Notes under the pieces: generated by a model
Databases searched by the model: none
Told to the model about the DNA's origin: nothing
What the model saw: only the letters and a program-made list of their open reading frames with translations
Assembly: GCA_910588195.1 (NCBI GenBank)
Contig: CAJUPN010000004.1
Location: 88,290 to 152,289, forward strand
DNA: 64,000 bases
Source of the DNA: an uncultured Bacilli bacterium
GTDB taxonomy: Bacteria; Bacillota_I; Bacilli_A; RF39; UBA660
Direction: 5' to 3'
Shown here: piece by piece, positions 4,333 to 19,567 of the stretch
Position numbering within the stretch: position 1 is the first letter of the stretch
Layout: every line of letters starts with the position of its first letter
Program-made: the position numbers and the translations under genes

Positions 4333-4704
4333 TTATTCTGTTACTTCTGGTGCTGTCAAATCACAAGTTCCATTAACACCCCAAACATCGGCAATTTGCA
4401 TCACTTGATCAACCAATATTGGCAAGAAAAATAAAAGTACCGTATAAATCATTCTCTTACCAAATTTCTGAGCCACCTTTTTCATCTCAGCTTCCGCATC
4501 TCCCTTAGAAACTGTTCTAACAACATCTAAAGTCGAAAACGCTACACATAAAACAGGAGCAGCTATTTGAAATATTTTAAGAACTCCATATAAATCCTTA
4601 GTAACATCAGCTCCTAAAGGACAACTTGCTGAAACATCCGAAATAAATAAAACAGAAAAAACAGCAATTGTCGCGATATAATATATAAAGTTATTTTTTT
4701 TCAT
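4333..4704 (-). CDS. Small secreted or membrane protein with two hydrophobic segments and Cys residues (paralog of 54653..55258)
   Basis: Signal-peptide-like N-terminus ending ...SAS, two hydrophobic helices separated by a charged loop (STLDVVRTVSKGD...KFGKRMIYTVLLFFLPIL). Clear similarity to the 201-aa protein at 54653..55258. Confidence 0.5.
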   Translation of the reverse strand: MKKNNFIYYIATIAVFSVLFISDVSASCPLGADVTKDLYGVLKIFQIAAPVLCVAFSTLDVVRTVSKGDAEAEMKKVAQKFGKRMIYTVLLFFLPILVDQVMQIADVWGVNGTCDLTAPEVTE

Positions 4705-4904: not shown

Positions 4905-6221
4905 ATGGGAAAAAAATATAAAATTGTAGTTTTTGCTTTAATATTATTTATTGGATTATTTATGCTAACACCTTTTGCTAAAGCTCTAGAAAATCAAGCA
5001 AAATCAATAAGAGATATTAGATTTTATACAGGAGCAAACAGTGAATCACCTTTCACAAAAATTGTTCTTACTTTAAATGATGATATAGTTGTAGATAAAT
5101 CTTATATTTTAATAAGTGATGAATCTACATCATTTATGATTTATACTTCAGATTTTAAAATTGTTGAAAATACAAATCCTGAAACAATTGAAGAATATAA
5201 TGCAGGAAAAAGTATAACTAACGAACAAATTTTAACTAAAGGTACTACCCTTTATTACTATAACAACAATGAAAATTTACTTAAGTCAGAAAAAGTAAAA
5301 ATAATTGTCGATTGGCGAAACAATAACAAGCAATACTTCTATGAAGAAATTGCCTATACTGTTAAAAGTGATGGATCTCAAGGAATAGAAAATATTAATC
5401 TAGAAGAAACTACAGAAAAAAGATTATTAAGAGATGAATTTTATGAAGCTGCTTTAAAAAAATATCCTTTTATAGTTTCCATCCAAAGCGATGAAACAGA
5501 AGTTACTTATGGCTACGAAATTAATAGTGCCCCTAATACAAAATATGCAATAATTGGAACATTCAGTTTTAAAGAAAAAACATTAGAACAATTATTAAAT
5601 GAACTAGATACATTAATAAATCAAGGAAAAGCTACTATAAATAATGATGATACTATTTTAAAAAATAATGAATTAGTTCAAATAAAAAACAACAAAGTAT
5701 TGACAACCTATGAAAAAATAGAAAATAATAACCTTCTTTATTCTTGGTCATTTGATGGAAATAAAATGACTGCCGATGATATAAAGCTTAATATTGATTT
5801 AAATTTAATACTTGGATTAACACCAAATAAAGACAAAATCGATGCCTTAATCCCAAGTAGTATTGCATCATTAAAACTAGATTTTCAACACAAAGGCAAT
5901 TTACCTCTTGGTACATCTTTAAAAGTTAATATTGGTTCCTCATTTAAAAATGATGATATATTAGATTTATACTATTATAATCCTGAAGCAAATAAACTTG
6001 AAAAAGTTGCTGAAAACATAATGGTTATTGATGGATTTGCTTCATTCCCAATTTCTCACTGTAGTGAATATGTATTAGTTTTAAATAAAGAAGCAAACAA
6101 AAATGCCGATAACAATGTACAAACATCATCTATGAATGTCATTTTATATACAATCATAACAATAGTTTGTGCTGGTGCCCTAGGTTATATTATAAAAAAC
6201 AAAAATAAGGAAATAGCCTAA
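4905..6221 (+). CDS. Cell-surface protein, probable sortase B substrate (C-terminal NVQTS-like signal, hydrophobic helix, basic tail)
   Basis: N-terminal signal peptide. C-terminus is ...NNVQTSSMNVILYTIITIVCAGALGYIIKNKNKEIA, which has the layout of a cell-wall sorting signal. Directly followed by a sortase gene. Confidence 0.6.
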   Translation: MGKKYKIVVFALILFIGLFMLTPFAKALENQAKSIRDIRFYTGANSESPFTKIVLTLNDDIVVDKSYILISDESTSFMIYTSDFKIVENTNPETIEEYNAGKSITNEQILTKGTTLYYYNNNENLLKSEKVKIIVDWRNNNKQYFYEEIAYTVKSDGSQGIENINLEETTEKRLLRDEFYEAALKKYPFIVSIQSDETEVTYGYEINSAPNTKYAIIGTFSFKEKTLEQLLNELDTLINQGKATINNDDTILKNNELVQIKNNKVLTTYEKIENNNLLYSWSFDGNKMTADDIKLNIDLNLILGLTPNKDKIDALIPSSIASLKLDFQHKGNLPLGTSLKVNIGSSFKNDDILDLYYYNPEANKLEKVAENIMVIDGFASFPISHCSEYVLVLNKEANKNADNNVQTSSMNVILYTIITIVCAGALGYIIKNKNKEIA

Positions 6222-6247
6222 AGCTATTTTCTTTAATTTAAGGAATT

Positions 6248-7006
6248 ATGTTAAAAAAAATTAAGAAAAAATTAACAATAAGAAATTTGCTTATCTTTTT
6301 ACTTTTAATAATATTTCTTTTTGCCATAACAAAAATATCACTTTTCTTCTATGACCTTCATATGAATGGAATAAAAACAAGAGCTTTAATTGATGATGTC
6401 TATGCTTCTTTCATCAATAAAGAGACAAATGAAGAAATAATAAAGATTGATTTTCCTAAACTATTATCAATAAATCGTGATACTGTTGGTTGGATAAAAG
6501 CAAATAATGGAAAAGTAAATTATCCAATTGTTCAAACAACAACTAATACATATTATTTAAACAAATCTTTTGATAAGACGTATAATCAAGCGGGTTCTAT
6601 TTTTATGGACTACCGTAATAGATCATCATTTCAAGATCGAAATGTTGTCTTATTTGGACACTCTATGCTTGATAAAACAATGTTTGGTTCTCTAAATGAT
6701 GTTTGGAAAAAAGACTTTTTCAATACTAAAGAAAATGGAATAATAAAAATAATTGATGCTAATAACAATCCTAGCACTTATGAAATATTTAGTTATTATA
6801 CTATTGATAAAGAAGAATATTATATAAAAACTAGTTTTTTATCAGATTCTGAATTTATCGAATTTTTAAACATTATAAAAAAAAGAAGTTTAAAAGACTT
6901 CAATATAAACTTAACTGAAAAAGATAAAATATTAACTTTATCCACTTGTGCTGGTACAGGTGGTACAAATAAACGAAAAGTAATTCATGCTAGAAAAATA
7001 AACTAA
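6248..7006 (+). CDS. srtB: Class B sortase
   Basis: 252 aa with an N-terminal membrane anchor. Catalytic TLSTC motif (LTLSTCAGTGG). Conserved His region (FGHSM). Confidence 0.8.
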   Translation: MLKKIKKKLTIRNLLIFLLLIIFLFAITKISLFFYDLHMNGIKTRALIDDVYASFINKETNEEIIKIDFPKLLSINRDTVGWIKANNGKVNYPIVQTTTNTYYLNKSFDKTYNQAGSIFMDYRNRSSFQDRNVVLFGHSMLDKTMFGSLNDVWKKDFFNTKENGIIKIIDANNNPSTYEIFSYYTIDKEEYYIKTSFLSDSEFIEFLNIIKKRSLKDFNINLTEKDKILTLSTCAGTGGTNKRKVIHARKIN

Positions 7007-7074
7007 AGACTTGCTAAAGTCTTTTTTTGTGGTATATTGTTTTATTTTGTCTATATAATTTATTAGGTGATTTA

Positions 7075-7399
7075 ATGTTATTTTTTATACATATTGTTAA
7101 TCTGCTTTCAATATTTATGGGATCTTATTCAATTAATGTCTTCCCAAATCCCTTATCAAAAGAAGAAGAAGCAGATCTTCTAAAAAAAATGCAAGATGGT
7201 GATAAACTAGCTCGTTCGAAACTTATTGAACACAATTTAAGACTTGTTGCTCACATTGTAAAAAAATTTGATTGTATTGAAAAAATGAATGATGATTTAA
7301 TAAGTATTGGTACAATCGGCTTAATCAAAGGAATAGATTCATTCAAAATAAATAAAAATAATAAACTTACAACCTATGTTGCCAGATGTATTGAAAATG
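7075..7399 (+). CDS. sigK: sigK 5' segment (spoIVCB-like): pro-sigma-K N-terminal half, interrupted by an intervening element
   Basis: AGGTGA RBS then ATG at 7075. Encodes a pro-sequence plus sigma region 2 (LIEHNLRLVAHIVKKF...LISIGTIGLIKGIDSF...TYVARCIEN), near-identical to B. subtilis SigK. The frame then reads through into unrelated sequence. Confidence 0.85.
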
Positions 7400-7614
7400 C
7401 AACATTCACCTGTTGGAAAGAATGCTTTTCATTTCTTTTATTAAAATATCTAAATCATTAGTATCTAATTCATAATTTTCAAGATATTTAGTTATTAATT
7501 CTAAATGTAAAAGAAGCAAATTATTTTGAAAATCAATATCATTTTTTGGCATTGATGTAATAACTTTCACACTATCACCTATAAAAATATATATTAAAAA
7601 AAAGAATTTTATAA

Positions 7615-9417
7615 CTATAAAACTCTTTTTTTCACTTTTGACTCTTCTTTATTATCTTCTTTTAAATCTTCGTCAGTTCTATCAACTTCTTGTGCTAGAT
7701 TATGGAATTTATTACCATTTTCAGCAATTTGTACCTTAAGCTCACCAGTTATACTATAATCGCTAGTCCAAGGAGCTTTAAATTCAACATAATCATTATT
7801 TCTAATTCCTCTATTTAAAACATCGTTAATAGCATTATAAATTGGTTCTTTCATTTCAAAATCATCACCATATTTAGAAATAACTCTTAAAACATCTTCC
7901 CAAACAACAAATTGACCTTCAGCAGATAAAACATCTATAACATTATCAGGGTATCTTGGATCTTCAAGTCTATTCGCTACAAGAGATGTAATACTTACAG
8001 CATCTTGATAAGAACCATTATACTCATGTTCAACAACATAATAAAGGGCTTTTAGTTCAAAATTAGTTAAAGTATATGTCGTATTATTAAAAGTTAAATG
8101 AAGTCCTCTAACAAGTTCTTCATTATCTTTACCCATAGAAATTTCTTCTGCCTTCATCTCTGTGTTCTCTTCTAATACCAAAGACCTATTTCCTTCTAAA
8201 ATACTTTGCGAATCAGCCATTAAGGCAACTGTTTTATTTTCAAAAGTCTGAACATTTACTGTAGCTAATGTTTCAGCTTCTAAATTATCATCACTTTTTA
8301 ATGTATCAACTTTTACTATTTCATAAGCATTTTCTGGAAAATTTTCACCAAAAGATTCATCTTCATATTCACTTGTTATAGAGTCTCCTATAATTGGTAA
8401 CTCATCACTAGATGACTTTCTTAATAAAAGTTTTCCTCCTTGTGCTACATTTAAAGATAATATATCAATATCACCTTGAGCTTTAAAAATTTTTAATTTC
8501 TCAACATCTGGTATACTTGTAATTGGCATACAAGCAATTGGAGAAACAAAATTACTTATTAAATTCTCCTGTGAAGAAACTGAAACAGCTACTACTCCTA
8601 AAGATAAAGACGCAATTGCTAAACTCTTCTTAAGAGCTAAGAAATCTTTATTTTCTACATTCTTTCCAAATTTAGAATATACCAAATTCTTAAATCTAGA
8701 AAACACACCTTTAGCTTTCAAATTAAATTTAGATAATCGATTTTCTTTTAACATATTTTTAGAAGCTTGACGATATCCTCTATAACACTTTATTAAAGTA
8801 TCAACATCCTTTTCATTAACGACATGATTTTTACTTAAAAATACTTCTTTTGGATTACAAAGTTCTTCACACATAATTAAAGAAGCTAATGTTGAATAAT
8901 ATGATATTAATTCTTCATTTGATAGATTTTTTAAATCTTCCTCGTTAATTTTATAACTAACTTCAACTTTCTCATTTAATACAGCTTTAATATATTCAAT
9001 TAACTTTTCTATTTCTCTACAAGAATTATAAAGCGATAAATACTTTTTATAATATTTTTCTGAGACACTTACACGATAATTTCCTTTAACAAAACTACGC
9101 TTTTTACCACTTTTTCTTTCCAAAAAAGACATATTTTCTTGATATAGTCGTTTTGTCTCATTTAAATAATCTACAATGTTTAATAAATCTTCATTTGAAT
9201 GAGCAATTTCTTCATCTATTGCAGTTGGATTATTAAGTTTTTCTTTCAGTTTTGCTATTGATTCATTAGTTGAATAAGATAACATTGAAAATAAATCACT
9301 TAAATTTTCATCTTGAGCTATCGCTATTTTTTCTTGTTGCTTAAGTATCAATTGTTCACTTCTTTTAGCAAGTATTTGTTGAATTTTTGTCTTTGTATTA
9401 TCTAACTCTTTAGTCAT
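7615..9417 (-). CDS. Membrane-anchored coiled-coil protein with a C-terminal SleB/CwlJ-type (Hydrolase_2) cell-wall hydrolase domain
   Basis: 600 aa. Central TM helix (LAIASLSLGVVAVSV). C-terminal ...YYVVEHEYNGSYQDAVSITSLVANRLEDPRYPDNVIDVLSAEGQFVVWED matches the cortex-lytic enzyme catalytic domain pattern. Confidence 0.6.
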   Translation of the reverse strand: MTKELDNTKTKIQQILAKRSEQLILKQQEKIAIAQDENLSDLFSMLSYSTNESIAKLKEKLNNPTAIDEEIAHSNEDLLNIVDYLNETKRLYQENMSFLERKSGKKRSFVKGNYRVSVSEKYYKKYLSLYNSCREIEKLIEYIKAVLNEKVEVSYKINEEDLKNLSNEELISYYSTLASLIMCEELCNPKEVFLSKNHVVNEKDVDTLIKCYRGYRQASKNMLKENRLSKFNLKAKGVFSRFKNLVYSKFGKNVENKDFLALKKSLAIASLSLGVVAVSVSSQENLISNFVSPIACMPITSIPDVEKLKIFKAQGDIDILSLNVAQGGKLLLRKSSSDELPIIGDSITSEYEDESFGENFPENAYEIVKVDTLKSDDNLEAETLATVNVQTFENKTVALMADSQSILEGNRSLVLEENTEMKAEEISMGKDNEELVRGLHLTFNNTTYTLTNFELKALYYVVEHEYNGSYQDAVSITSLVANRLEDPRYPDNVIDVLSAEGQFVVWEDVLRVISKYGDDFEMKEPIYNAINDVLNRGIRNNDYVEFKAPWTSDYSITGELKVQIAENGNKFHNLAQEVDRTDEDLKEDNKEESKVKKRVL

Positions 9418-9584
9418 TATTAAACACTCCCCTTCAATTTTTATTTCTGAGTATAAAATTACTCAGAACACACCTAATCAAAATACCATAAATTATAGTT
9501 TGTGTCAACCATTTTTGCGTCATTTTTCGGCACTTTTCCGCATATTTTCATTAGTTCCCTAGTATATAATAAAGAGGTGAAAAA

Positions 9585-11156
9585 GTGAACGATAAAAAGT
9601 ATGCTATATATTCTCGTAAATCGAAATATACAGGGAAAGGAGAAAGCACAACTAATCAAATAGAACTATGTCTAACAACCCTAAAAAACAAATTTCCAGA
9701 CATAAAAAAAGATGAAATATTAATCTATGAAGATGAAGGATTTTCAGGTTATAGCACCAATCGTCCTGCTTTTAAAAAGCTTTTAAAAGACATTGAAAAT
9801 AATAAAATAAAAATTCTCCTTTTTTATAAACTTGATCGAATAAGCAGAAACGTTAATGACTTCGCAAGATTAATGTCTCTCCTAGAAGCTCACGATGTTT
9901 CATTTCTATCAGCTACAGAAAATATTGAAACACTAACACCTAGTGGCAAAGCACTAACTTATATGATATCTGTTTTTGCTGAACTAGAAAGAAATACCAT
10001 AGCAGAAAGAATAAAAGATAATATGCTTGAACTTGCTAAATCAGGTGTTTGGCTTGGTGGAAATACTCCCACTGGTTATAGCTCAGTTGAAGAAATAAAA
10101 TTAATTAATAATAAAAAGAAAAAAACTTATTGTCTAAAAGAAAATGAGGATATCGAAAAAGTAGAACTAATCTTTAAAAACTATCTAAGACTTAAATCTT
10201 TAACAAAATTAGAGACATTCCTTTTAAATAAAAATATATTATCTATTAATTTAAAACCATACACTCGTTTTTCTTTAAAAAATATATTAACTAACCCTGT
10301 TTATGTAAAAAGTGATAAAGATATCTACAATTACTATGAGAATAAAGGAATAAATTTATATGGGGGTTCTTGGAATGGAATTAATGGCTTAATGGTTTAT
10401 AATAAAACAACTAATTTAAATCATAAAATATTAAAAAGAAAGAAAACAGAAGAATGGATTATAAGTGTCGGTAAACATAAAGGAATAATTGATGGGAAGA
10501 CATTTATAAATGTTGCAAATTTAATTGAAGCTAATAACAACATGCGATATCGTAAAACAAATTCTTTAAGAAGTCCCCTGTCAGGACTCGTAAAATGTGC
10601 TAATTGTAAATCTAACATGCGACCTAAAATAAGAAAGAATAAAGACAATGAAATCATCACTGACTATTTATGTGAATTAAAAGAAAAAAGCAAGAAGAAT
10701 TTATGTGATGCCAAAAACATAAATGGTTCAATCATTGAAGATACAATAATAAGTAATATAATGAACTTTGAAATAAATATGACTATTTTATTCAACAAAT
10801 TAAAAAAGACTCTCAAAACTGATAAAAATAGTGAAATAAAAGAAATTTCCTATAGAATAAAGAAAAATAATGAAACAATAAAAAATTTAATTGATAAAAT
10901 AAAATATATTGATATATCAATAATAGATGACATAAATAAAGAAATAAAAGAATTAAAAGAAGAAAATGCTATGTTAAACTCTAGATTAAATAAATTAAAT
11001 GCTAATTCTATAGATTTAAAAGACCTAGCCAATAAAACTATAAAGAATTATAAAAATATTAACAATTTAGATAATAAAACAAAGAAAAAATACTTACATT
11101 TATTAATAAAAGAAATCATAGCTTCAAATAATAAACTTATTATTAATTATAAATAA
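9585..11156 (+). CDS. Large serine recombinase (SpoIVCA-like) predicted to excise the sigK intervening element
   Basis: 523 aa. Resolvase catalytic domain (YSRKS...LDRISRN), recombinase domain, a Cys zinc ribbon (CANCKSN...C...C) and a C-terminal coiled coil. Sits inside the sigK-splitting element and ends 24 bp before the 3' sigK core. Confidence 0.9.
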   Translation: MNDKKYAIYSRKSKYTGKGESTTNQIELCLTTLKNKFPDIKKDEILIYEDEGFSGYSTNRPAFKKLLKDIENNKIKILLFYKLDRISRNVNDFARLMSLLEAHDVSFLSATENIETLTPSGKALTYMISVFAELERNTIAERIKDNMLELAKSGVWLGGNTPTGYSSVEEIKLINNKKKKTYCLKENEDIEKVELIFKNYLRLKSLTKLETFLLNKNILSINLKPYTRFSLKNILTNPVYVKSDKDIYNYYENKGINLYGGSWNGINGLMVYNKTTNLNHKILKRKKTEEWIISVGKHKGIIDGKTFINVANLIEANNNMRYRKTNSLRSPLSGLVKCANCKSNMRPKIRKNKDNEIITDYLCELKEKSKKNLCDAKNINGSIIEDTIISNIMNFEINMTILFNKLKKTLKTDKNSEIKEISYRIKKNNETIKNLIDKIKYIDISIIDDINKEIKELKEENAMLNSRLNKLNANSIDLKDLANKTIKNYKNINNLDNKTKKKYLHLLIKEIIASNNKLIINYK

Positions 11157-11179
11157 ACTTTCCAACAAGTTAGTATAGC

Positions 11180-11552
11180 AAATGAAATATTGATGTACTT
11201 TAGAAGTAATAAGAAAAACAACAATAATGTTTCTTTAAATGATTCAATTGGTTATGATAAAGATGGCAATGAAATAAATCTTATTGATGTCATCAAATCC
11301 AATAATACTGAATTAACAGAATTTCTTCACAATAAAGATAATTTAGACAAATTAAATAAATATTTAAGTGTTCTAAACGAAAGAGAAAAAGAAATAATTA
11401 TAAAAAGATACGGTCTTTTTGATAATGATGAATTTACTCAAAAAGAAATATCAGAATATTTAAATATTTCAAGATCCTATGTTTCAAGAATTGAAAAAAG
11501 AGCTATAACTAAGCTCTTCCGAGAATTTAAACGTGACGGTGGAGAATTTTAA
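11180..11552 (+). CDS. sigK: sigK 3' segment (spoIIIC-like): regions 3-4 of sigma-K
   Basis: Encodes ...ILMYFRSNKK...VSLNDSIGYDKDGNEINLIDVIKS...ISRSYVSRIEKRAITKLFREF, which matches the B. subtilis SigK C-terminal half. The frame is open back to the AAATG core. Confidence 0.85.
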
Positions 11553-12367: not shown

Positions 12368-15300
12368 TTAATCTACCTCCATTGAAGTTATTTCTTCTTT
12401 TTTCTTTATAATAATTTGTTTACTTTCAGATCCACAAACTAATTTATATGAACCAGTCTCTAAATCCTTTATATTTTTATAATATCTATCATCTATTAAG
12501 CATTCAGTCGGTATTAAATAGTCATCACCTTGGTAAAATTCTAAAATACTAGACTCTTTTTCTGAAATAATTTTAGTAACTGTTAAACTTGCTACTGATA
12601 ATATATTATCTGAAGATCTAGTTCTAGCAATTATAGTTAAATTTTTGTCTATTTTAATAGGTTCTTTATAAAGTATCCAAGTTTGTCCTAAATCTAAACT
12701 ATATTCATTAATAAATCCTGATGGATAATCAATGGTTATCTCTTTAGTTGAAGATAATTCAAAAGAATCCATATGGAACTTTGGTGCTTGAACAGTGTTT
12801 ACATCAATAAGTTCACTGTAACCCATACTGGTTGGTTGAAGTGCAATTTGAGTAACTGTGACTGTTCCATTTCCAGCTGAACAATCACCATAAACACAAG
12901 CATTCTCATATTCAGATCCACCTTTTACACTTATAACACCAAGTTGATCTATTCCAGTATTTTGGTTAGTAAATATATTAATACTTCCTCCACCAGAACC
13001 TCCACCTCCTGATGTTCCATATCCACCTCTTGCTCCATTAGCTGTTAGCTTTCCATTGTTTTTGTATTCATTTGCATATAAAACTAGAAGTCCTCCCGTT
13101 CCATTACTTCCATATCTTATCTTATCTTGACCAGGTGTTCCTCCTCCAGGATTTCCGGCTCCTCCACCCCATCCTTGATATCCTCCGCCACCTTGGCCTC
13201 CAATATCTGATGCTGGTGGATTTGCCTTGTATGAACCTCCTGATCCTCCAGAATATGATGTTCCTTTTCCTCCTTGACTGGTATTTAGACTTGCTGTTCC
13301 TCCAGCTCCGCCTCCTCCAGTCTGTCGTCCAATTCCATCCATTCCTTTTGTTTTTGATGTTGTTTCTGATGAACCTCCTTCAGCTCCTAATGCTGGTACA
13401 TATTCATATGTTCCATCTGCATTCTTCCACAAGTATACATCTTGTCCTTCAGCTTTGGCTCCATGGGAATTATCTATTGTTCCATTATTCTCTAACTTCC
13501 CAGTTACATACATTGTAAATCCTTTTGGTCCTCCATATAATTCATCATAATATGGTCTTACTGTTACTCCTTCTTCTATTGTTACATTTCCCTTGACCTT
13601 TACCACTACCATGTTTCGTGCATTATCATTCTTTGTTGCTACATCTCCTGCATCTCCAAATATTTGATCACTACTCCATCTTTGGTCTCCTTCTATTACA
13701 TACATATGCACTGGGTATTCTTCATTATTTACTTTGAAGAACCAATACCCACTTCTTATATCTTCATTAATAATTGATAAAATACTATCTCCTGTTTTAG
13801 TTACAGAATTTTTGTATGCTTCTTTGTCCTGTTCAATTATCTCTTTTAAATCATAATAAGTTCCGTTTCGAACCTCTCCAATATTTATTGTTCCATCTCC
13901 TGCGGAACAATCACCATATGGGCACATATTATCATACTCTGGACCACCAATAGTTTTTGAAATACCTAGAATTTCATTATACCTAGTATTAGTTATAACA
14001 CCAAGTTGATCTATTCCAGTATTTTGGTTAGTAAATATATTAATACTTCCTCCACCAGAACCTCCACCTCCTGATGTTCCATATCCACCTCTTGCTCCAT
14101 TAGCTGTTAGCTTTCCATTGTTTTTGTATTCATTTGCATATAAAACTAGAAGTCCTCCCGTTCCATTACTTCCATATCTTATCTTATCTTGACCAGGTGT
14201 TCCTCCTCCAGGATTTCCGGCTCCTCCACCCCATCCTTGATATCCTCCGCCACCTTGGCCTCCAATATCTGATGCTGGTGGATTTGCCTTGTATGAACCT
14301 CCTGATCCTCCAGAATATGATGTTCCTTTTCCTCCTTGACTGGTATTTAGACTTGCTGTTCCTCCAGCTCCGCCTCCTCCAGTCTGTCGTCCAATTCCAT
14401 CCATTCCTTTTGTTTTTGATGTTGTTTCTGATGAACCTCCTTCAGCTCCTAATGCTGGTACATATTCATATGTTCCATCTGCATTCTTCCACAAGTATAC
14501 ATCTTGTCCTTCAGCTTTGGCTCCATGGGAATTATCTATTGTTCCATTATTCTCTAACTTCCCAGTTACATACATTGTAAATCCTTTTGGTCCTCCATAT
14601 AATTCATCATAATATGGTCTTACTGTTACTCCTTCTTCTATTGTTACATTTCCCTTGACCTTTACCACTACCATGTTTCGTGCATTATCATTCTTTGTTG
14701 CTACATCTCCTGCATCTCCAAATATTTGATCACTACTCCATCTTTGATCTCCTTCTATTACATACATATGCACTGGGTAAATAACGCTGGTGCCCAACAC
14801 TTCAAAATCATAATAACCTGATTTTAAATCTTTTGTTTCTATTATGTCTAATATACTATTACCTTTTACTGTTATATTTGTTACTTTAATATCCTTACTT
14901 ACCTGTGCAGTTAGCCCAGCACCTGTTGTTATTTCACAAGTCAAAGTATATTCTCCTACTGGTAAACTACTTGAATTTGTATACTCTACATCACTATTAG
15001 GAACTTTGCAGACCCTATTTGATCCACTTATTCCATCAGTATAACTAGTTGGTATTACATATTCTAGATCTTTAGAAAAAATACTAGGTAAACCATCTAA
15101 ACTAATAGTTGGAATTGTTTTATCAATTTTTGAAACCGTAAACGAAGCAGCAACCTTTATGTTATCACCGTCAACAACTCTTGCAACAACAATTGTATTA
15201 TTTTCAGTTATCTTTAATGGTTGTTCATATAATTCCCAAGACTCGCCTAAATCTAAACTATATTGATAACTATAGCCATTATAAACATCTCTTGGATAAC

Positions 15301-18300
15301 TAATAGTTAATTCTTTTTCCGTTGCCCATCCTTCATTATCTAATATATATGAAATATCTCCGATATCAGTTGTAGTAACACTTAACTGATAAGCATCTGA
15401 TATGTTGCCAGCTTTATCGGTTACTTTTATATAAACTTGATATTCTTTATTATTTTTTAATTTATTAAAAGTATATACATTATTTTTAGAAGTTATATAT
15501 TCTTCCCCATCTAAAGAATACATATAAGTATCTACTTTACTACTTTGATCTTCTGCTAAAACTTCTATAGTAAAATTACTCGACCCTTTTTCTAAAATAT
15601 TTACATCTATTATTTCTGGTTTTATCACATCAATATTAGTAATTCTTTTACTAGCTATTTCACTTTGAATTTCTACATCATTAATAGATTTAGCATATAT
15701 CGTAGCATCTTCTTTAGAAATCTTAATTGGATTTTTATAATCTAGCCAATCAGTTTCTTCTCCATCACTGTAAATAATTTTATAAAGTTTTTCTACACTT
15801 ACCTTATCATAATTAATTGCAACAGTAACTTCTTTTGTCCATTCCTCTGTTGATAAAATAAATGTTGGTGTATTAGGTTTTGCTAAATCCCATCTCATAA
15901 ATATATTTTCAGATAATTCTGATAAAGGCACATCTAAAACATAATAATCATCTTTTATAATTATTTCTTTGCCATTTTCATCTTTTATTTTTACTCCATC
16001 AGATCCAATAACTTTATCTTTGTATTCTGGTCTAATTAAGACAATCCCATGGGGGTTATATTTTTTCCATTCACCATCTTTTTTCCATTTATACTCACGA
16101 TCACTTGGATTAGACATAGTCGGATAATTTAGTTTTATTAAATAATACATTCCATTATCTAAAATCGTTAAATTATCTTTTGGTATTATATTATCTACTA
16201 ATATCTCACTTTCTCCATAATGTCCTAACGAATCTTCATTATAGGCACTTATTCTTGTATTATTAGTAATTAACTCAATTGGACCAAAATAATCAAGCCA
16301 CTCACCATCATCAAGTTTATATTTTTTTATACTTGCAGTATTAGCATATTCAATTTCAACTCTAACCCATGGGGATGGTGTTGTTGGATTTATTCTAATT
16401 AAAGGATTAGAGATACCAGTTGTTAAATAATTAACTTGCTTACTAGTTTCACCTAAACCTTTTGTATTTAAAGCATAAGCATAAACGGTTGTATTCTCAT
16501 TTATTTCAAATGGTCCATTATATTCTCTTAAGTCTCCATTCCCAATTCTATAGTATCTTCCTGTTGCTCTTTCATCATATAAAATACTAACCTCTAACTT
16601 ATCAATTAGACCTTGAACTTCATTTTCTTCTGGCGATAAAGTAATTGCTACATCTAATTTTTCTAAAGGAATTGGAGCAATTGAAGTTGTAATATTTAAT
16701 TTTTCAATTGTTATCCCATTTTTATTAGTACCCTTTGCATAAATACTTTTACTTTGATTTATTTGGATTGGTCGTTCATATCTAAAATACTCTATTCCAT
16801 TAAAAGAATATTCTAAAGTATCATAGTCACTTCCACTTATAGTAACTATTACAGAATCAATATCTTCATTCAAATAAATACTTGGACTAGCATCTATTTT
16901 TACATAAGGTTTATTGGGTTGTTTAATATTTTGAACATAATAATAAGTTACTTCTGATTTCTTATCATTCTTATTTATATAGTAAGATCTTATAATTGAG
17001 TTTTTTAAAACTTCAAAGGTATTAACATATTCCTGATAAGATCCACCATCTACACTGTAGTAAATATTTTTTGCTTCTTCCTTTGTTTTAATATCTACTG
17101 TTACCTTCTCAGTTAGAGTAGTTGGCGAAACAGATATTACTGGTCCTTCTAATCTATCAGATAAAGATACTGCTTCTATATATTTTACATCATAAGCATA
17201 TTTTCCTTTATATTCTGCTTTAGCATATATGAATGTGTTAGCACTAACTTCAAACGAATTTGTATACAAAGTATAATTTTTATTGTCTAAACTATAATAT
17301 ATTTTTGAATTAGCTTCATTACTTACTATACTTATAGTCGCTTTTTGCCCTTTTAAAAGTCGATTATGAGATGAATTAATATTTACATGCAAGTAATTTT
17401 CATCTGGATTATCTCCTCCTTCTGGATTGCCTTCACCACTTTTAAAAATTGTCTTTTGTGATCTACCAACAGCCTTTCCTGTTCTTTTTACTCCATTATC
17501 TAAATCAATTGTTCTCTCACTTTCAGCATAAGCATATACAGTTGAGTTAGCACTCACTACAAATGAACCGGTATAATCAAGCCATGCAGAATCATCAACT
17601 TTATACATTCTAACTATAGCATCATCTTCATAATCAATGCTTACATTAGTTTTTTCATTTAAATATTCTTTATCTGGATTAATATCTATCCTAACACTAC
17701 CAAAATTAAGTGAACTTTCACCCTTTTCACTTATGTAAAGAGCATCTTCACCAACTAATGTTTTTTGCATTATAACATTTCCTTCAGCATCATAAACATT
17801 TTCTTCTTTAGTTGCCCTAGCTTCAATTAAAGTATCAGCACCAACACTAAATTCTTTTTCGTACTGAATCCAATTTCCACCATTTATACGATATTCCTTA
17901 GTTTTAGCATTTTTATCATAAGTTATTTTTACATTAGTTATTTCTTCACCACTTAAAGTCATCTTGTCAGCTGATATATCAACTAAGACTTTGCCATTAG
18001 GAACATCTATTACTTTTTCTCCATCAAGATCATAACGTATATAAATATTACCTATATCACTAACCTTAACTAAAATTGGTCCAGTATAACTTTCCCAATC
18101 ATCATCTTCGCCACGGATTTCACCTTCTCTATGTAATCTCCACTCACGATTAGTTGAACCAACTGGATAATAAATATTTAATCTTATCCATCCATCCCAT
18201 TCTTCATCTTCACCATTTGGAACAATAACTTTTATATCCTTACTTACCTCAGCATAAGTTCCTGTATTAGATATAGCCTTACAACTAACCGTATATTCTC

Positions 18301-19567
18301 CTACAGCAAAATCCTCAGTTGATGAAACATTTTTACTCCAATCATGATCTAAAGCACATGAATAATTACCACCTGATGGACCAAATTCAACATGACTTGG
18401 AAGTTGATATTTTTCACCATATTCAAAAACTGCTGGTAAATCTATTAAATCAATTTTTGGTATTTCTAATTCTGGTTTAATAGGTTTTGTTGTATTAGTT
18501 GGTTTAACTGTTATTGTCTGCTCAGTAGAACTAACTGGCTTTGTTGTTGTAGACTTATCACCAGAGGAAGTTGTTGTCGTTTTAATAGGTTTTGTTGTAT
18601 TATTCTCTTCATCTAAATTTCCTGTTGGCTTAGTTTTATCTGGATTTGAATCTGGATAAACAGTCGTCCCATTGTTATAATTCGGATTATCTATCTCACT
18701 CTTATTAGTTGTATTTTCCGTATTTGAATTATCATTATTATCTTCAGAATTTGATACCCCATTATTAAAATTAGAAGTTCTTTCTGTAAATGTAACTTCA
18801 TAACTATTTAAAGCATTATCAAAAACCTTTATTGTTATCGTATATTCTGTATTTTCTTCTAAATTCTTTATAACAAAATTATTCTTTACTTCAACATACT
18901 CTTTATTGCCTATTTTATAATAATAATTTTTTATTCCCGAATCTTTGTCCCTTGCTTTAACATTTATATTAAAAGAATTAGCTGTAACACTTTTAGTAAT
19001 TGAATCAATAATTGGTGAAATATTATCAATAAGTACTTCTTCTTTGTTCGAAATAAATGAATATTTTCCATTTTTATATTTACCCTTAAAGAAAACATTC
19101 CATTTGCCTGTTTCCGCTATTTCTATACTCTTTTCTTGAGTTTCTTTCCAATCACATTTCTTACTAGATTTATTCTCAGTTACACAGTACATATAACTTT
19201 CTAACTCACTTACATCCACATCTTTTTTTACATATACTATATTACTCTTTACCCATCCATCTTCTTTACTTTCAATCAATGGACGATTATTTGTTATTAT
19301 TGATGATATACCAATATTTATAAACATCAAAAGAATCAACACTATAAAAAACAAAAGGAAAGGAAATAACCATAATTTAGAAACATAAACAGTTACTTCA
19401 TCACTGTTTTTTATCTCGCTTCCCTCTTCTGGTTCAGTTCTAATAACTCTTCCTCTTCTAATAAATAAACTAAATTCTTTTTCTTCTTTATAGTTTATCT
19501 TCTCTTTATCTAAAATCTCTTTTGCATCTTCAAATTTTTCTTTTTTTAAAACAGGTACTATTTTCAT
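12368..19567 (-). CDS. Giant (2399 aa) membrane-anchored surface protein with N-terminal PASTA-like domain, TM helix, FN3-like and chitobiase/hexosaminidase C-terminal-like repeats, and duplicated Gly-rich beta-helix-like modules
   Basis: Single uninterrupted frame with an AGGAG RBS. One TM helix at about residues 65-90. Many ...IYYSxDG...Y-type repeat domains. Two glycine-rich modules (GGGGAGGTASLNTSQGGKGTSYSGGSGG...). Confidence 0.8.
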   Translation of the reverse strand: MKIVPVLKKEKFEDAKEILDKEKINYKEEKEFSLFIRRGRVIRTEPEEGSEIKNSDEVTVYVSKLWLFPFLLFFIVLILLMFINIGISSIITNNRPLIESKEDGWVKSNIVYVKKDVDVSELESYMYCVTENKSSKKCDWKETQEKSIEIAETGKWNVFFKGKYKNGKYSFISNKEEVLIDNISPIIDSITKSVTANSFNINVKARDKDSGIKNYYYKIGNKEYVEVKNNFVIKNLEENTEYTITIKVFDNALNSYEVTFTERTSNFNNGVSNSEDNNDNSNTENTTNKSEIDNPNYNNGTTVYPDSNPDKTKPTGNLDEENNTTKPIKTTTTSSGDKSTTTKPVSSTEQTITVKPTNTTKPIKPELEIPKIDLIDLPAVFEYGEKYQLPSHVEFGPSGGNYSCALDHDWSKNVSSTEDFAVGEYTVSCKAISNTGTYAEVSKDIKVIVPNGEDEEWDGWIRLNIYYPVGSTNREWRLHREGEIRGEDDDWESYTGPILVKVSDIGNIYIRYDLDGEKVIDVPNGKVLVDISADKMTLSGEEITNVKITYDKNAKTKEYRINGGNWIQYEKEFSVGADTLIEARATKEENVYDAEGNVIMQKTLVGEDALYISEKGESSLNFGSVRIDINPDKEYLNEKTNVSIDYEDDAIVRMYKVDDSAWLDYTGSFVVSANSTVYAYAESERTIDLDNGVKRTGKAVGRSQKTIFKSGEGNPEGGDNPDENYLHVNINSSHNRLLKGQKATISIVSNEANSKIYYSLDNKNYTLYTNSFEVSANTFIYAKAEYKGKYAYDVKYIEAVSLSDRLEGPVISVSPTTLTEKVTVDIKTKEEAKNIYYSVDGGSYQEYVNTFEVLKNSIIRSYYINKNDKKSEVTYYYVQNIKQPNKPYVKIDASPSIYLNEDIDSVIVTISGSDYDTLEYSFNGIEYFRYERPIQINQSKSIYAKGTNKNGITIEKLNITTSIAPIPLEKLDVAITLSPEENEVQGLIDKLEVSILYDERATGRYYRIGNGDLREYNGPFEINENTTVYAYALNTKGLGETSKQVNYLTTGISNPLIRINPTTPSPWVRVEIEYANTASIKKYKLDDGEWLDYFGPIELITNNTRISAYNEDSLGHYGESEILVDNIIPKDNLTILDNGMYYLIKLNYPTMSNPSDREYKWKKDGEWKKYNPHGIVLIRPEYKDKVIGSDGVKIKDENGKEIIIKDDYYVLDVPLSELSENIFMRWDLAKPNTPTFILSTEEWTKEVTVAINYDKVSVEKLYKIIYSDGEETDWLDYKNPIKISKEDATIYAKSINDVEIQSEIASKRITNIDVIKPEIIDVNILEKGSSNFTIEVLAEDQSSKVDTYMYSLDGEEYITSKNNVYTFNKLKNNKEYQVYIKVTDKAGNISDAYQLSVTTTDIGDISYILDNEGWATEKELTISYPRDVYNGYSYQYSLDLGESWELYEQPLKITENNTIVVARVVDGDNIKVAASFTVSKIDKTIPTISLDGLPSIFSKDLEYVIPTSYTDGISGSNRVCKVPNSDVEYTNSSSLPVGEYTLTCEITTGAGLTAQVSKDIKVTNITVKGNSILDIIETKDLKSGYYDFEVLGTSVIYPVHMYVIEGDQRWSSDQIFGDAGDVATKNDNARNMVVVKVKGNVTIEEGVTVRPYYDELYGGPKGFTMYVTGKLENNGTIDNSHGAKAEGQDVYLWKNADGTYEYVPALGAEGGSSETTSKTKGMDGIGRQTGGGGAGGTASLNTSQGGKGTSYSGGSGGSYKANPPASDIGGQGGGGYQGWGGGAGNPGGGTPGQDKIRYGSNGTGGLLVLYANEYKNNGKLTANGARGGYGTSGGGGSGGGSINIFTNQNTGIDQLGVITNTRYNEILGISKTIGGPEYDNMCPYGDCSAGDGTINIGEVRNGTYYDLKEIIEQDKEAYKNSVTKTGDSILSIINEDIRSGYWFFKVNNEEYPVHMYVIEGDQRWSSDQIFGDAGDVATKNDNARNMVVVKVKGNVTIEEGVTVRPYYDELYGGPKGFTMYVTGKLENNGTIDNSHGAKAEGQDVYLWKNADGTYEYVPALGAEGGSSETTSKTKGMDGIGRQTGGGGAGGTASLNTSQGGKGTSYSGGSGGSYKANPPASDIGGQGGGGYQGWGGGAGNPGGGTPGQDKIRYGSNGTGGLLVLYANEYKNNGKLTANGARGGYGTSGGGGSGGGSINIFTNQNTGIDQLGVISVKGGSEYENACVYGDCSAGNGTVTVTQIALQPTSMGYSELIDVNTVQAPKFHMDSFELSSTKEITIDYPSGFINEYSLDLGQTWILYKEPIKIDKNLTIIARTRSSDNILSVASLTVTKIISEKESSILEFYQGDDYLIPTECLIDDRYYKNIKDLETGSYKLVCGSESKQIIIKKKEEITSMEVD
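12931..13717. repeat. 787-bp direct repeat, copy 1, inside the giant surface protein gene (encodes the C-proximal Gly-rich module)
   Basis: Essentially identical to 13993..14779 (offset 1062 bp, one mismatch seen). Produces identical antisense ORFs at 13072..13518 and 14134..14580. Confidence 0.9.
13993..14779. repeat. 787-bp direct repeat, copy 2, inside the giant surface protein gene
   Basis: Same as above. Separated from copy 1 by about 275 bp of unique sequence. Confidence 0.9.

Follow-up and report, generated by a model that had tools for sequence, protein, structure and literature searches.

The subject of this report is a 64,000-nucleotide (nt) stretch of DNA from an uncultured Bacilli bacterium (contig CAJUPN010000004.1, positions 88,290 to 152,289; hereafter the window), which has a G+C content of about 25%. 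In the window, the sporulation sigma factor gene sigK is interrupted by a segment of 3,785 bp bounded by att sites. The segment contains a large serine recombinase gene, a small acidic open reading frame (ORF), and a gene for a 600-amino-acid (aa) protein that we call X (7615..9417, minus strand). On balance, we think it probable that X is a lineage-specific host enzyme, membrane-anchored and with a SleB fold, that was formerly a neighbour of sigK, that has a sigma-A-type promoter, and that is now enclosed in a minimal excision segment. The original prediction had described X as a germination-type passenger and as the only non-recombinase gene of the element. The 600-aa ORF and its location between the two att sites in sigK were borne out, and six lineages that have diverged from one another keep this linkage. 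The element does have a further non-recombinase gene, since the small ORF (7406..7570, minus strand) is also present and conserved.

Domain structure and fold of X

X consists of a helical N-terminal domain (aa 1-255), a hydrophobic anchor (~aa 260-283), a variable linker (~aa 284-435) and a SleB-fold Hydrolase_2 domain (~aa 436-585) with the glutamate E465. The motif quoted in the original prediction, VVEHEYNGSYQDAVSITSLVANRLEDPRYPDNVIDVLSAEGQFVVW, is at aa 461-506, and the Hydrolase_2 domain that it had proposed was found at aa 469-569 with Pfam PF07486 (E=1.7e-6, 29.0 bits; gathering cut-off 27.0). Nine relatives of the C-terminal domain also have a Pfam match; five of them reach 27 bits and the other four are at 24-26 bits. 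A library-wide hidden Markov model search identified 235 proteins at E<=1e-3, nearly all of them through the C-terminal domain alone, and these distant relatives have varied N-termini.

The profile of the 13-sequence X family did not reach SleB in a search of PDB sequences. A 42-sequence profile of the domain (alignment A2) matched the SleB catalytic structures 4F55 (E=1.3e-7) and 4FET (E=2.1e-7), and it aligned the near-invariant Glu of the X family with the first Glu of the SleB motif YGESRGE, which we take to be the catalytic residue. This Glu is E465 in X. As had been predicted, it is present throughout, being invariant in all 13 family members and at least 90% conserved in the 42-sequence set. 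The catalytic Glu is essential for SleB to act as a lytic transglycosylase (PMC12331253). In the AlphaFold model of full-length X, the C-terminal half had a predicted local distance difference test score (pLDDT) below 50, and a model of aa 430-600 made with the deeper alignment A2 reached 91. The only meaningful PDB matches of the latter model in Foldseek were 4F55 and 4FET, with probabilities of 1.00 and 0.97, target-normalised template modelling scores of 0.69 and 0.65, a root-mean-square deviation of ~4.5 A and ~18% identity to SleB.

The N-terminal 250 aa were modelled by AlphaFold as long helices and two beta-hairpins (pLDDT ~90). Searches of the PDB and of viral structure libraries found nothing that matches this domain, and it has almost no sequence relatives outside the family. 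The hydrophobic segment at ~aa 260-283 is the single hydrophobic stretch of X, in agreement with the one membrane segment originally predicted. It is present in every member of the family with a positively charged N-flank, and its Kyte-Doolittle 19-residue mean is 1.5-2.0 in family members. Since there is one such segment with a positive N-flank, hydropathy suggests that X might be a bitopic protein with the N-terminus inside and the C-terminus outside. When X was compared with its counterpart in L025, a second strain of the same species, the ratio of nonsynonymous to synonymous divergence (dN/dS) was 0.24 overall and 0.16 in the N-terminal domain. Thus, judging from dN/dS, X is maintained by purifying selection.

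X and sigK in related lineages

The relatives compared here are metagenome-assembled genomes labelled uncultured 'Bacilli bacterium', and the close family of X has 17 members. In the six diverged lineages mentioned above, X lies in an equivalent three-gene segment within sigK, in the same chromosomal neighbourhood, and the size of the element is 3,785-3,917 bp. Identity between lineages is 89-93% for SigK, 57-73% for the recombinase and 44-56% for X. Since the identity matrices of the three proteins give one grouping, the comparison indicates that the segment was inherited vertically in these lineages.

The nearest proteins beyond these lineages are orthologues over the full length of X, and in three lineages they are encoded in the chromosome next to or near an intact sigK. 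P0019, a full-length X orthologue that is 32% identical end to end, lies directly upstream of an intact 230-aa sigK in L013 and L014, in divergent orientation. P0021 (L017-L019) is also directly upstream of an intact sigK and divergent from it, while one ABC-transporter gene lies between P0020 (L022-L024) and its intact sigK. L017 is collinear with the window, with flanking proteins that are 73-87% identical and X sequences that are ~30-57% identical. The three contigs that carry P0019 (L012, L013 and L014) have a common 3' end point 633 bp past the gene and are identical in their terminal sequence, which suggests a repeat or structural variant just beyond.

Directly downstream of X in the intact-sigK relatives is a gene for a small secreted or membrane protein. 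Its orthologue in the window encodes 123 aa (4333..4704, minus strand), matches no Pfam family, and is 73% identical at the amino acid level to the N-terminal part of the L017 gene (L017:8733-9434). The pair of X and the small secreted-protein gene also occurs in L013, L016 and L022. This partner is 123-233 aa long and is constant in the three intact-sigK lineages. The 123-aa gene is thus probably the ancestral neighbour of X, because in the intact-sigK relatives it is directly downstream of X. The 5' region of the small-protein gene in L017 carries TATATAAT-N-AGGTGA, which is like the motifs before sigK and the recombinase gene. L029, a more distant relative, has no X; a gene of similar size (216 aa), which may be homologous, is directly beside its sigK.

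A tree of four host proteins encoded in the flanks (1,163 columns) was built by neighbour joining and rooted on L029. Its topology was (L013,((L017,L022),(L001,(L028,L005)))), with 100% bootstrap support for the element-bearing clade and 99.5% for L013, which has an intact sigK, branching first. Because the element-bearing lineages are nested in the host-gene tree, parsimony would make X beside an intact sigK the ancestral state and the enclosure of X the derived one.

X does not look like horizontally acquired cargo, as its orthologues are in syntenic chromosomal positions and it co-diverges with the host. It had no tblastn match among 50,697 phage or 72,556 plasmid records (E<=1e-3) and no PHROG match beyond chance. 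Therefore X is probably not a mobile-element passenger but a resident host gene, because its orthologues adjoin an intact sigK in three lineages and the tree makes this position ancestral. A different origin would be from a prophage or conjugative element that formerly occupied the sigK insertion and has since decayed, leaving X behind, for example as a hydrolase for lysis or transfer. The skin elements described so far are defective prophages (PMC4191935), the species with P0019 has a larger phage-like element at the same sigK site, and the distant relatives of the C-terminal domain have varied N-termini. However, X had no viral structural match in addition to lacking phage, plasmid and PHROG homologues in the searches above, it lies outside the phage-like element in the P0019 species, the chromosomal position is ancestral in the phylogeny, and its dN/dS is 0.24. 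We consider this origin very improbable.

The formal rearrangement between the two arrangements is that the block of the small ORF, attL, the sigK 5' part and the sigK promoter exchanged order with X without inversion, and that an island of a sortase and a surface protein appeared upstream of sigK. In the window, this island (4905-7006, plus strand) consists of a sortase gene and a gene for a 438-aa protein with a signal peptide and a C-terminal anchor, directly upstream of sigK. The two genes were found only in the element-bearing clade, where they fill the place that X has in the intact-sigK relatives. Capture of X by a single recombinase-mediated inversion, deletion or aberrant excision was considered and rejected, since none of these yields the observed gene orientations.

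The promoter of X

A sigma-A-type promoter precedes X (9480..9508, minus strand), with the -35 element TTGACA (9508-9503), a 17-nt spacer and a TG-extended -10 element TATTTT (9485-9480). All eight lineages have TTGACA, a 17-18 nt spacer and a TG-extended -10 (TATGGTATTTT) 5' of X. These include the lineages with X outside sigK, and the promoter accompanies X in both arrangements. The original prediction had called for a search for sigma-G, sigma-F or sigma-E motifs in the upstream region. In regular-expression scans, no sigma-E, sigma-K, sigma-F or sigma-G consensus was found 5' of X in any of the eight lineages; the sigma-A pattern was found instead in all eight. Given the conserved sigma-A-type promoter, X would most likely be made in growing or pre-divisional cells and not under a sporulation sigma factor.

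Directly 3' of the -10 element, a box is present in all eight lineages (TTAGGTGTGTT; T(T/A)AGGTGTGTT; window 9420-9480, minus strand, alignment A3). It could be an operator or a stabiliser of the 5' end. After the box comes a hairpin in the 5' untranslated region that keeps its position across lineages while its sequence differs. We rejected it as a demonstrated regulatory RNA, since its z-scores against shuffled sequences were -1.8 to +0.2 and it is broken in L025.

The original prediction took X for a germination-specific cortex-lytic enzyme like SleB or CwlJ which, being located in the element, would be expressed only in the forespore or the germ line, or only as long as excision has not occurred. 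Its SleB-fold domain with the catalytic Glu would fit such a role, X is always at or in the sigK locus, and the sporulation sigma factor of this organism carries a pro-sequence. However, X belongs neither to SleB proper nor to CwlJ. The NCBIfam SleB equivalog TIGR02869 scored 14.9 bits against a cut-off of 236.5, no PG_binding match was found in X with Pfam, and there is no ypeB or gerQ-like gene among the neighbours at the X locus, the part of the genome that the search covered. SleB has a sigma-G promoter and CwlJ a sigma-E promoter. X has the sigma-A-type promoter in all eight lineages without an upstream sigma-G, sigma-F or sigma-E consensus, and at 600 aa it is a multi-domain protein. Moreover, X and its promoter would stay intact on the excised circle, and the orthologues of X function outside any element. 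A germination-specific role is therefore unlikely, and a Hydrolase_2 match should not be equated with a germination function.

The sigK element and its att sites

According to the NCBIfam SigK models, sigK is split at model position 113/114. The ORF at 7027..7461 matches model positions 1-113 and the ORF at 11190..11552 matches 114-227. When aligned with the intact sigK of relatives, the 5' part (7075..7399, plus strand) extends from the pro-sequence to CIEN and ends in the attL core AAATG (7395-7399). The 3' part (11185..11552, plus strand) follows the attR core AAATG (11180-11184). Junction comparison showed that this core is common to attL and attR, and the excisable segment is 7400..11184, 3,785 bp including one copy of the core. 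The sequences on the two sides of the junction are GTATTGAAAATG and CAACATTCACCTGTTGGAAAG in attL, and CTTTCCAACAAGTTAGTATAGCAAATG and AAATATTGATG in attR. The rejoined attB is GTATTGAAAATGAAATATTGATG, and the deduced attP contains GTATAGCAAATGCAACATTCACC and has an imperfect dyad (CTTTCCAACAAG...CTGTTGGAAAG). The arms TTTCC...GGAAA are kept in most lineages examined, with L001 degenerate on one arm. These terminal inverted repeats were read from the aligned att sites; a generic repeat finder did not rank them.

Joining the flanks without 7400..11184 gives an in-frame 230-aa SigK with its pro-sequence, and this reconstituted SigK is 87-92% identical to the intact or reconstituted SigK of relatives. 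There are two co-oriented sigK parts that join in frame, and a large serine recombinase is beside one att site, as in elements of the skin type. The gene content is not prophage-like, since the integrase alone matches a PHROG family. Within the element there was no Rfam match, and a PADLOC scan found no defence-system match. The element is thus a stripped-down version of the known skin type.

The large serine recombinase (9585..11156, plus strand; 523 aa) contains the Pfam domains Resolvase, Recombinase and Zn_ribbon_recom and matches the integrase family PHROG 95 (E=6e-95). A sigma-E-like promoter motif precedes it (9540..9579, plus strand), with GCATATT at 9540-9546, GTATATAAT at 9562-9570 and the Shine-Dalgarno sequence AGAGGTG at 9573-9579. 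Motifs of this kind are at a fixed distance of -43 to -45 from the start codons of the recombinase gene, the small ORF and sigK, and the best kept is that of the recombinase gene, G(C/T)ATATT-N14/15-CAGTATATAAT-AAAGAGGTG. These assignments are resemblances to the consensus in AT-rich DNA.

The small ORF, s, encodes 54 aa with an isoelectric point (pI) of 4.8 and extends at its 3' end into the attL arm. In five element-bearing lineages it is conserved with its own Shine-Dalgarno sequence (45-54 aa, pI 4.1-5.2), and it was also called as a gene in L025. Its putative sigma-E-like motif has the form ATATT-N13-CATAwwTT in three lineages. Scans with Pfam, PHROG and PADLOC found no sequence similarity of the small ORF to any family. 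Among the known recombination directionality factors (RDFs) of such elements, CD1234 of the Clostridioides difficile skin element has 72 aa and a pI of 5.5, and its gene, which depends on sigma-E and SpoIIID, has a transcription start that lies upstream of the start codon by 14 nt (PMC5025042). Skr of the Bacillus subtilis skin element has 64 aa, and the order attL-rdf...int-attR is the SPbeta layout (PMC6957869). GirX, the RDF of gin, is a 6.5-kDa protein (PMC5595907). Since the size, the acidity and the position opposite the integrase resemble those of CD1234, Skr, GirX and SprB, the small ORF is a good candidate RDF.

A terminator-like AT-rich hairpin with a T-run, read from the sequence, is at the stop codon of X (7596..7626, minus strand) and parts X from the small ORF. 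L001, L005, L009 and L010 have an equivalent hairpin and T-run. It was missed by a consensus scan because the stem is AT-rich.

At the left end of the element, there are no nucleotide differences between the window and L025 in codons 436-585 of X and in the small ORF (7406-8110), and the sortase gene has three synonymous changes (6248-7006). The synonymous divergence (dS) is 0.18 in the N-terminal part of X and 0.22 in yqeG. Because of these near-zero differences against the dS elsewhere, a tract of recent recombination seems to span the left end.

Excision and the position of X

Two short metagenome contigs from two samples, L020 and L021 (1,258 and 1,002 bp), have sigK rejoined precisely at the predicted core. 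They are 99.7-99.9% identical to the flanks in L001 and L008 and belong to the species of L001, a sister species (protein cluster P0166, 30 member sequences). These contigs are either mother-cell excision products or from cured strains. In the P0019 species, sigK of contig L012 is interrupted at precisely this position by a larger phage-like element, with an attL arm (CAGTATTCACCTGTTGGAAAA) nearly identical to that of the window, while sigK is uninterrupted in L013 and L014. The recombinase/att family is therefore still mobile. Among the products of the L012 element are an HTH_3 protein, DnaB_C and a small resolvase (L012:6900-7900).

We propose the following scheme, which draws on the known skin elements. 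The ancestral X would have been beside sigK, divergent from it and upstream of the small secreted-protein gene. In the clade of the window, X would have ended up between the att sites of a minimal recombination unit, with the recombinase at one end and the RDF-like ORF at the other. X would be transcribed from its own sigma-A-type promoter. Its helical domain of ~255 residues would be in the cytoplasm, and the weakly hydrophobic anchor would span the membrane. An acidic variable linker of ~150 residues would tether the SleB-fold lytic-transglycosylase domain, with E465 as the general acid, outside the membrane, where it might cut the glycan strands of peptidoglycan in the vegetative wall or the cortex. 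In the mother cell, sigma-E-like promoters would switch on the recombinase gene and the small ORF. The 3,785-bp segment would then leave as a circle carrying X, and sigK would be rejoined.

The original prediction also held that X would be lost on excision and so expressed only before it or in the forespore. This does not follow, because the att sites lie outside both X and its promoter, and excision would put the two intact on the circle rather than destroy them. We found no sign that X needs excision to be expressed, or is limited by it. What connects X with the sigK switch is therefore its position and its history. Of the unusual coupling to the sigK switch that had been suggested, the physical linkage stands and is conserved, but the evidence favours a historical accident with independent selection on X and on the switch.

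The enclosure itself might be functional. X could be removed from the mother-cell chromosome in a programmed manner, or antisense read-through from the sigK promoter could silence the small ORF and X before excision; in either version, X would be tuned down exactly as the cortex is made. The excision unit of this gut Bacilli clade would then have swallowed a neighbouring host gene, which the terminal mother cell cuts out just as it puts sigK together, and the enclosure would be kept because the removal or antisense silencing of this gene keeps the forming cortex safe or the mother cell from lysing at the wrong time, a proposal that we also regard as unlikely. If true, it would be a programmed elimination of a host gene as regulation, beyond the removal of an interrupting parasite. 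The enclosure has persisted in six lineages despite the divergence of X, the recombinase and SigK, the sigK 5' part (plus strand) and X (minus strand) are convergent with the small ORF and ~215 bp between them, and X is under purifying selection. However, the excised X keeps its promoter on the circle, relatives manage with X outside sigK, and X is set apart from the small ORF by a terminator-like hairpin. Retention also needs no function, since the host needs X and the segment cannot be lost without germ-line excision. We doubt a functional enclosure on these grounds.

X might also be a part of the switch, such as a sensor in the membrane whose cytoplasmic domain regulates the recombinase or the RDF. 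This domain of 255 aa is confidently folded, without known relatives, and nearly unique to the sigK-linked family. However, orthologues have the same N-terminal domain where the recombinase is absent and sigK is intact, and known pairs of serine recombinase and RDF suffice for excision (PMC5025042). Such a role is the most improbable of those considered here.

Several observations weigh against our reading of X as a former neighbour of sigK with a SleB-fold domain and a membrane anchor. The polarity of the change depends on a neighbour-joining tree of four proteins with one outgroup, and no simple recombination pathway accounts for the move of X inside. The adjacency of X and sigK persists in four arrangements, which could reflect a functional tie. 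The Pfam score of X is barely over the threshold (29.0 against 27.0 bits), and the Foldseek E-values to SleB are 0.04-0.1, though the probabilities are 0.97-1.0. The hydrophobic segment is serine-rich and marginal in the orthologues P0020 and P0021 (Kyte-Doolittle 1.2-1.3). Because it is marginal in two orthologues, X might instead be cytoplasmic and, as CwlJ does, become part of the spore from the side of the mother cell. The promoter calls are consensus matches in DNA of 25% G+C. Finally, an exact search of JGI metagenomes for the attP of the window species gave no match, and excision was not observed for this species.

Other features of the window

On the minus strand at 12368-19567, the window contains a giant ORF of 2,399 aa with a 100%-identical direct repeat, whose copies start 1,062 nt apart (12931 and 13993). 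The repeat is in a Gly-rich stretch with a G+C content of 0.44 against a background of 0.25, and its duplication extends to phantom ORFs of 148 aa on the opposite strand.

Comparison with known systems

Elements that intervene in sporulation genes are usually read as decayed prophages with incidental contents. Here the element is a bare recombination unit of 3.8 kb, and it offers a natural minimal model of the sigK switch, with an integrase, a candidate RDF and att sites of ~50 bp. In an incomplete search of the literature, we found no description of such a minimal sigK element. A developmental excision unit also seems to have captured a host gene here, and X would represent a new subfamily of SleB-fold enzymes in uncultured gut spore-formers, anchored in the membrane and carrying a cytoplasmic domain that is uncharacterised.

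Like the skin elements known from B. subtilis (SpoIVCA/Skr) and C. difficile (CD1231/CD1234), the element interrupts sigK and has a large serine recombinase at one end. Skin elements need a small RDF, and their excision in the mother cell rejoins sigK (PMC5025042, PMC6957869); here both the recombinase gene and the small ORF carry sigma-E-like motifs. Unlike the skin elements, which have 19 genes in C. difficile and are a large defective prophage in B. subtilis, the element has three genes in 3.8 kb. It has no phage-related genes but the integrase, and its middle gene is apparently a former host neighbour of sigK. The candidate RDF is at the far end, as sprB is in SPbeta, whereas skr is next to or overlaps the integrase gene.

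In SPbeta and phi3T, the integrase and RDF genes are at opposite ends and become adjacent across attP after excision (PMC6957869), and the same layout is found here, with the small ORF at attL and the recombinase gene at attR. However, a single gene of apparent host origin lies between them instead of a phage genome of ~130 kb, and the target is sigK instead of spsM or kamA. The gin element in gerE of Bacillus cereus (GirC/GirX) is likewise a non-prophage element, and it is excised in sporulation by a serine recombinase and an RDF (PMC5595907). Unlike gin, which has 31 genes and three recombinases and was apparently mobile recently, the element has three genes and has been passed on vertically across species-level divergence.

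X shares the fold of the catalytic domain and the aligned catalytic Glu with SleB and CwlJ. SleB has a signal peptide and a peptidoglycan-binding domain, and CwlJ is a small single-domain protein; X differs from both in its predicted cytoplasmic domain of 255 aa, its anchor and its long linker, as well as in its sigma-A-like promoter and the lack of a ypeB or gerQ partner nearby. The endolytic transglycosylases of the MltG type are bitopic, and a single transmembrane helix connects their N-terminal region in the cytoplasm to an extracellular domain that cleaves glycans of the vegetative wall. Their likeness to X is a functional analogy only; the catalytic folds are unrelated (YceG in MltG and Hydrolase_2 in X).

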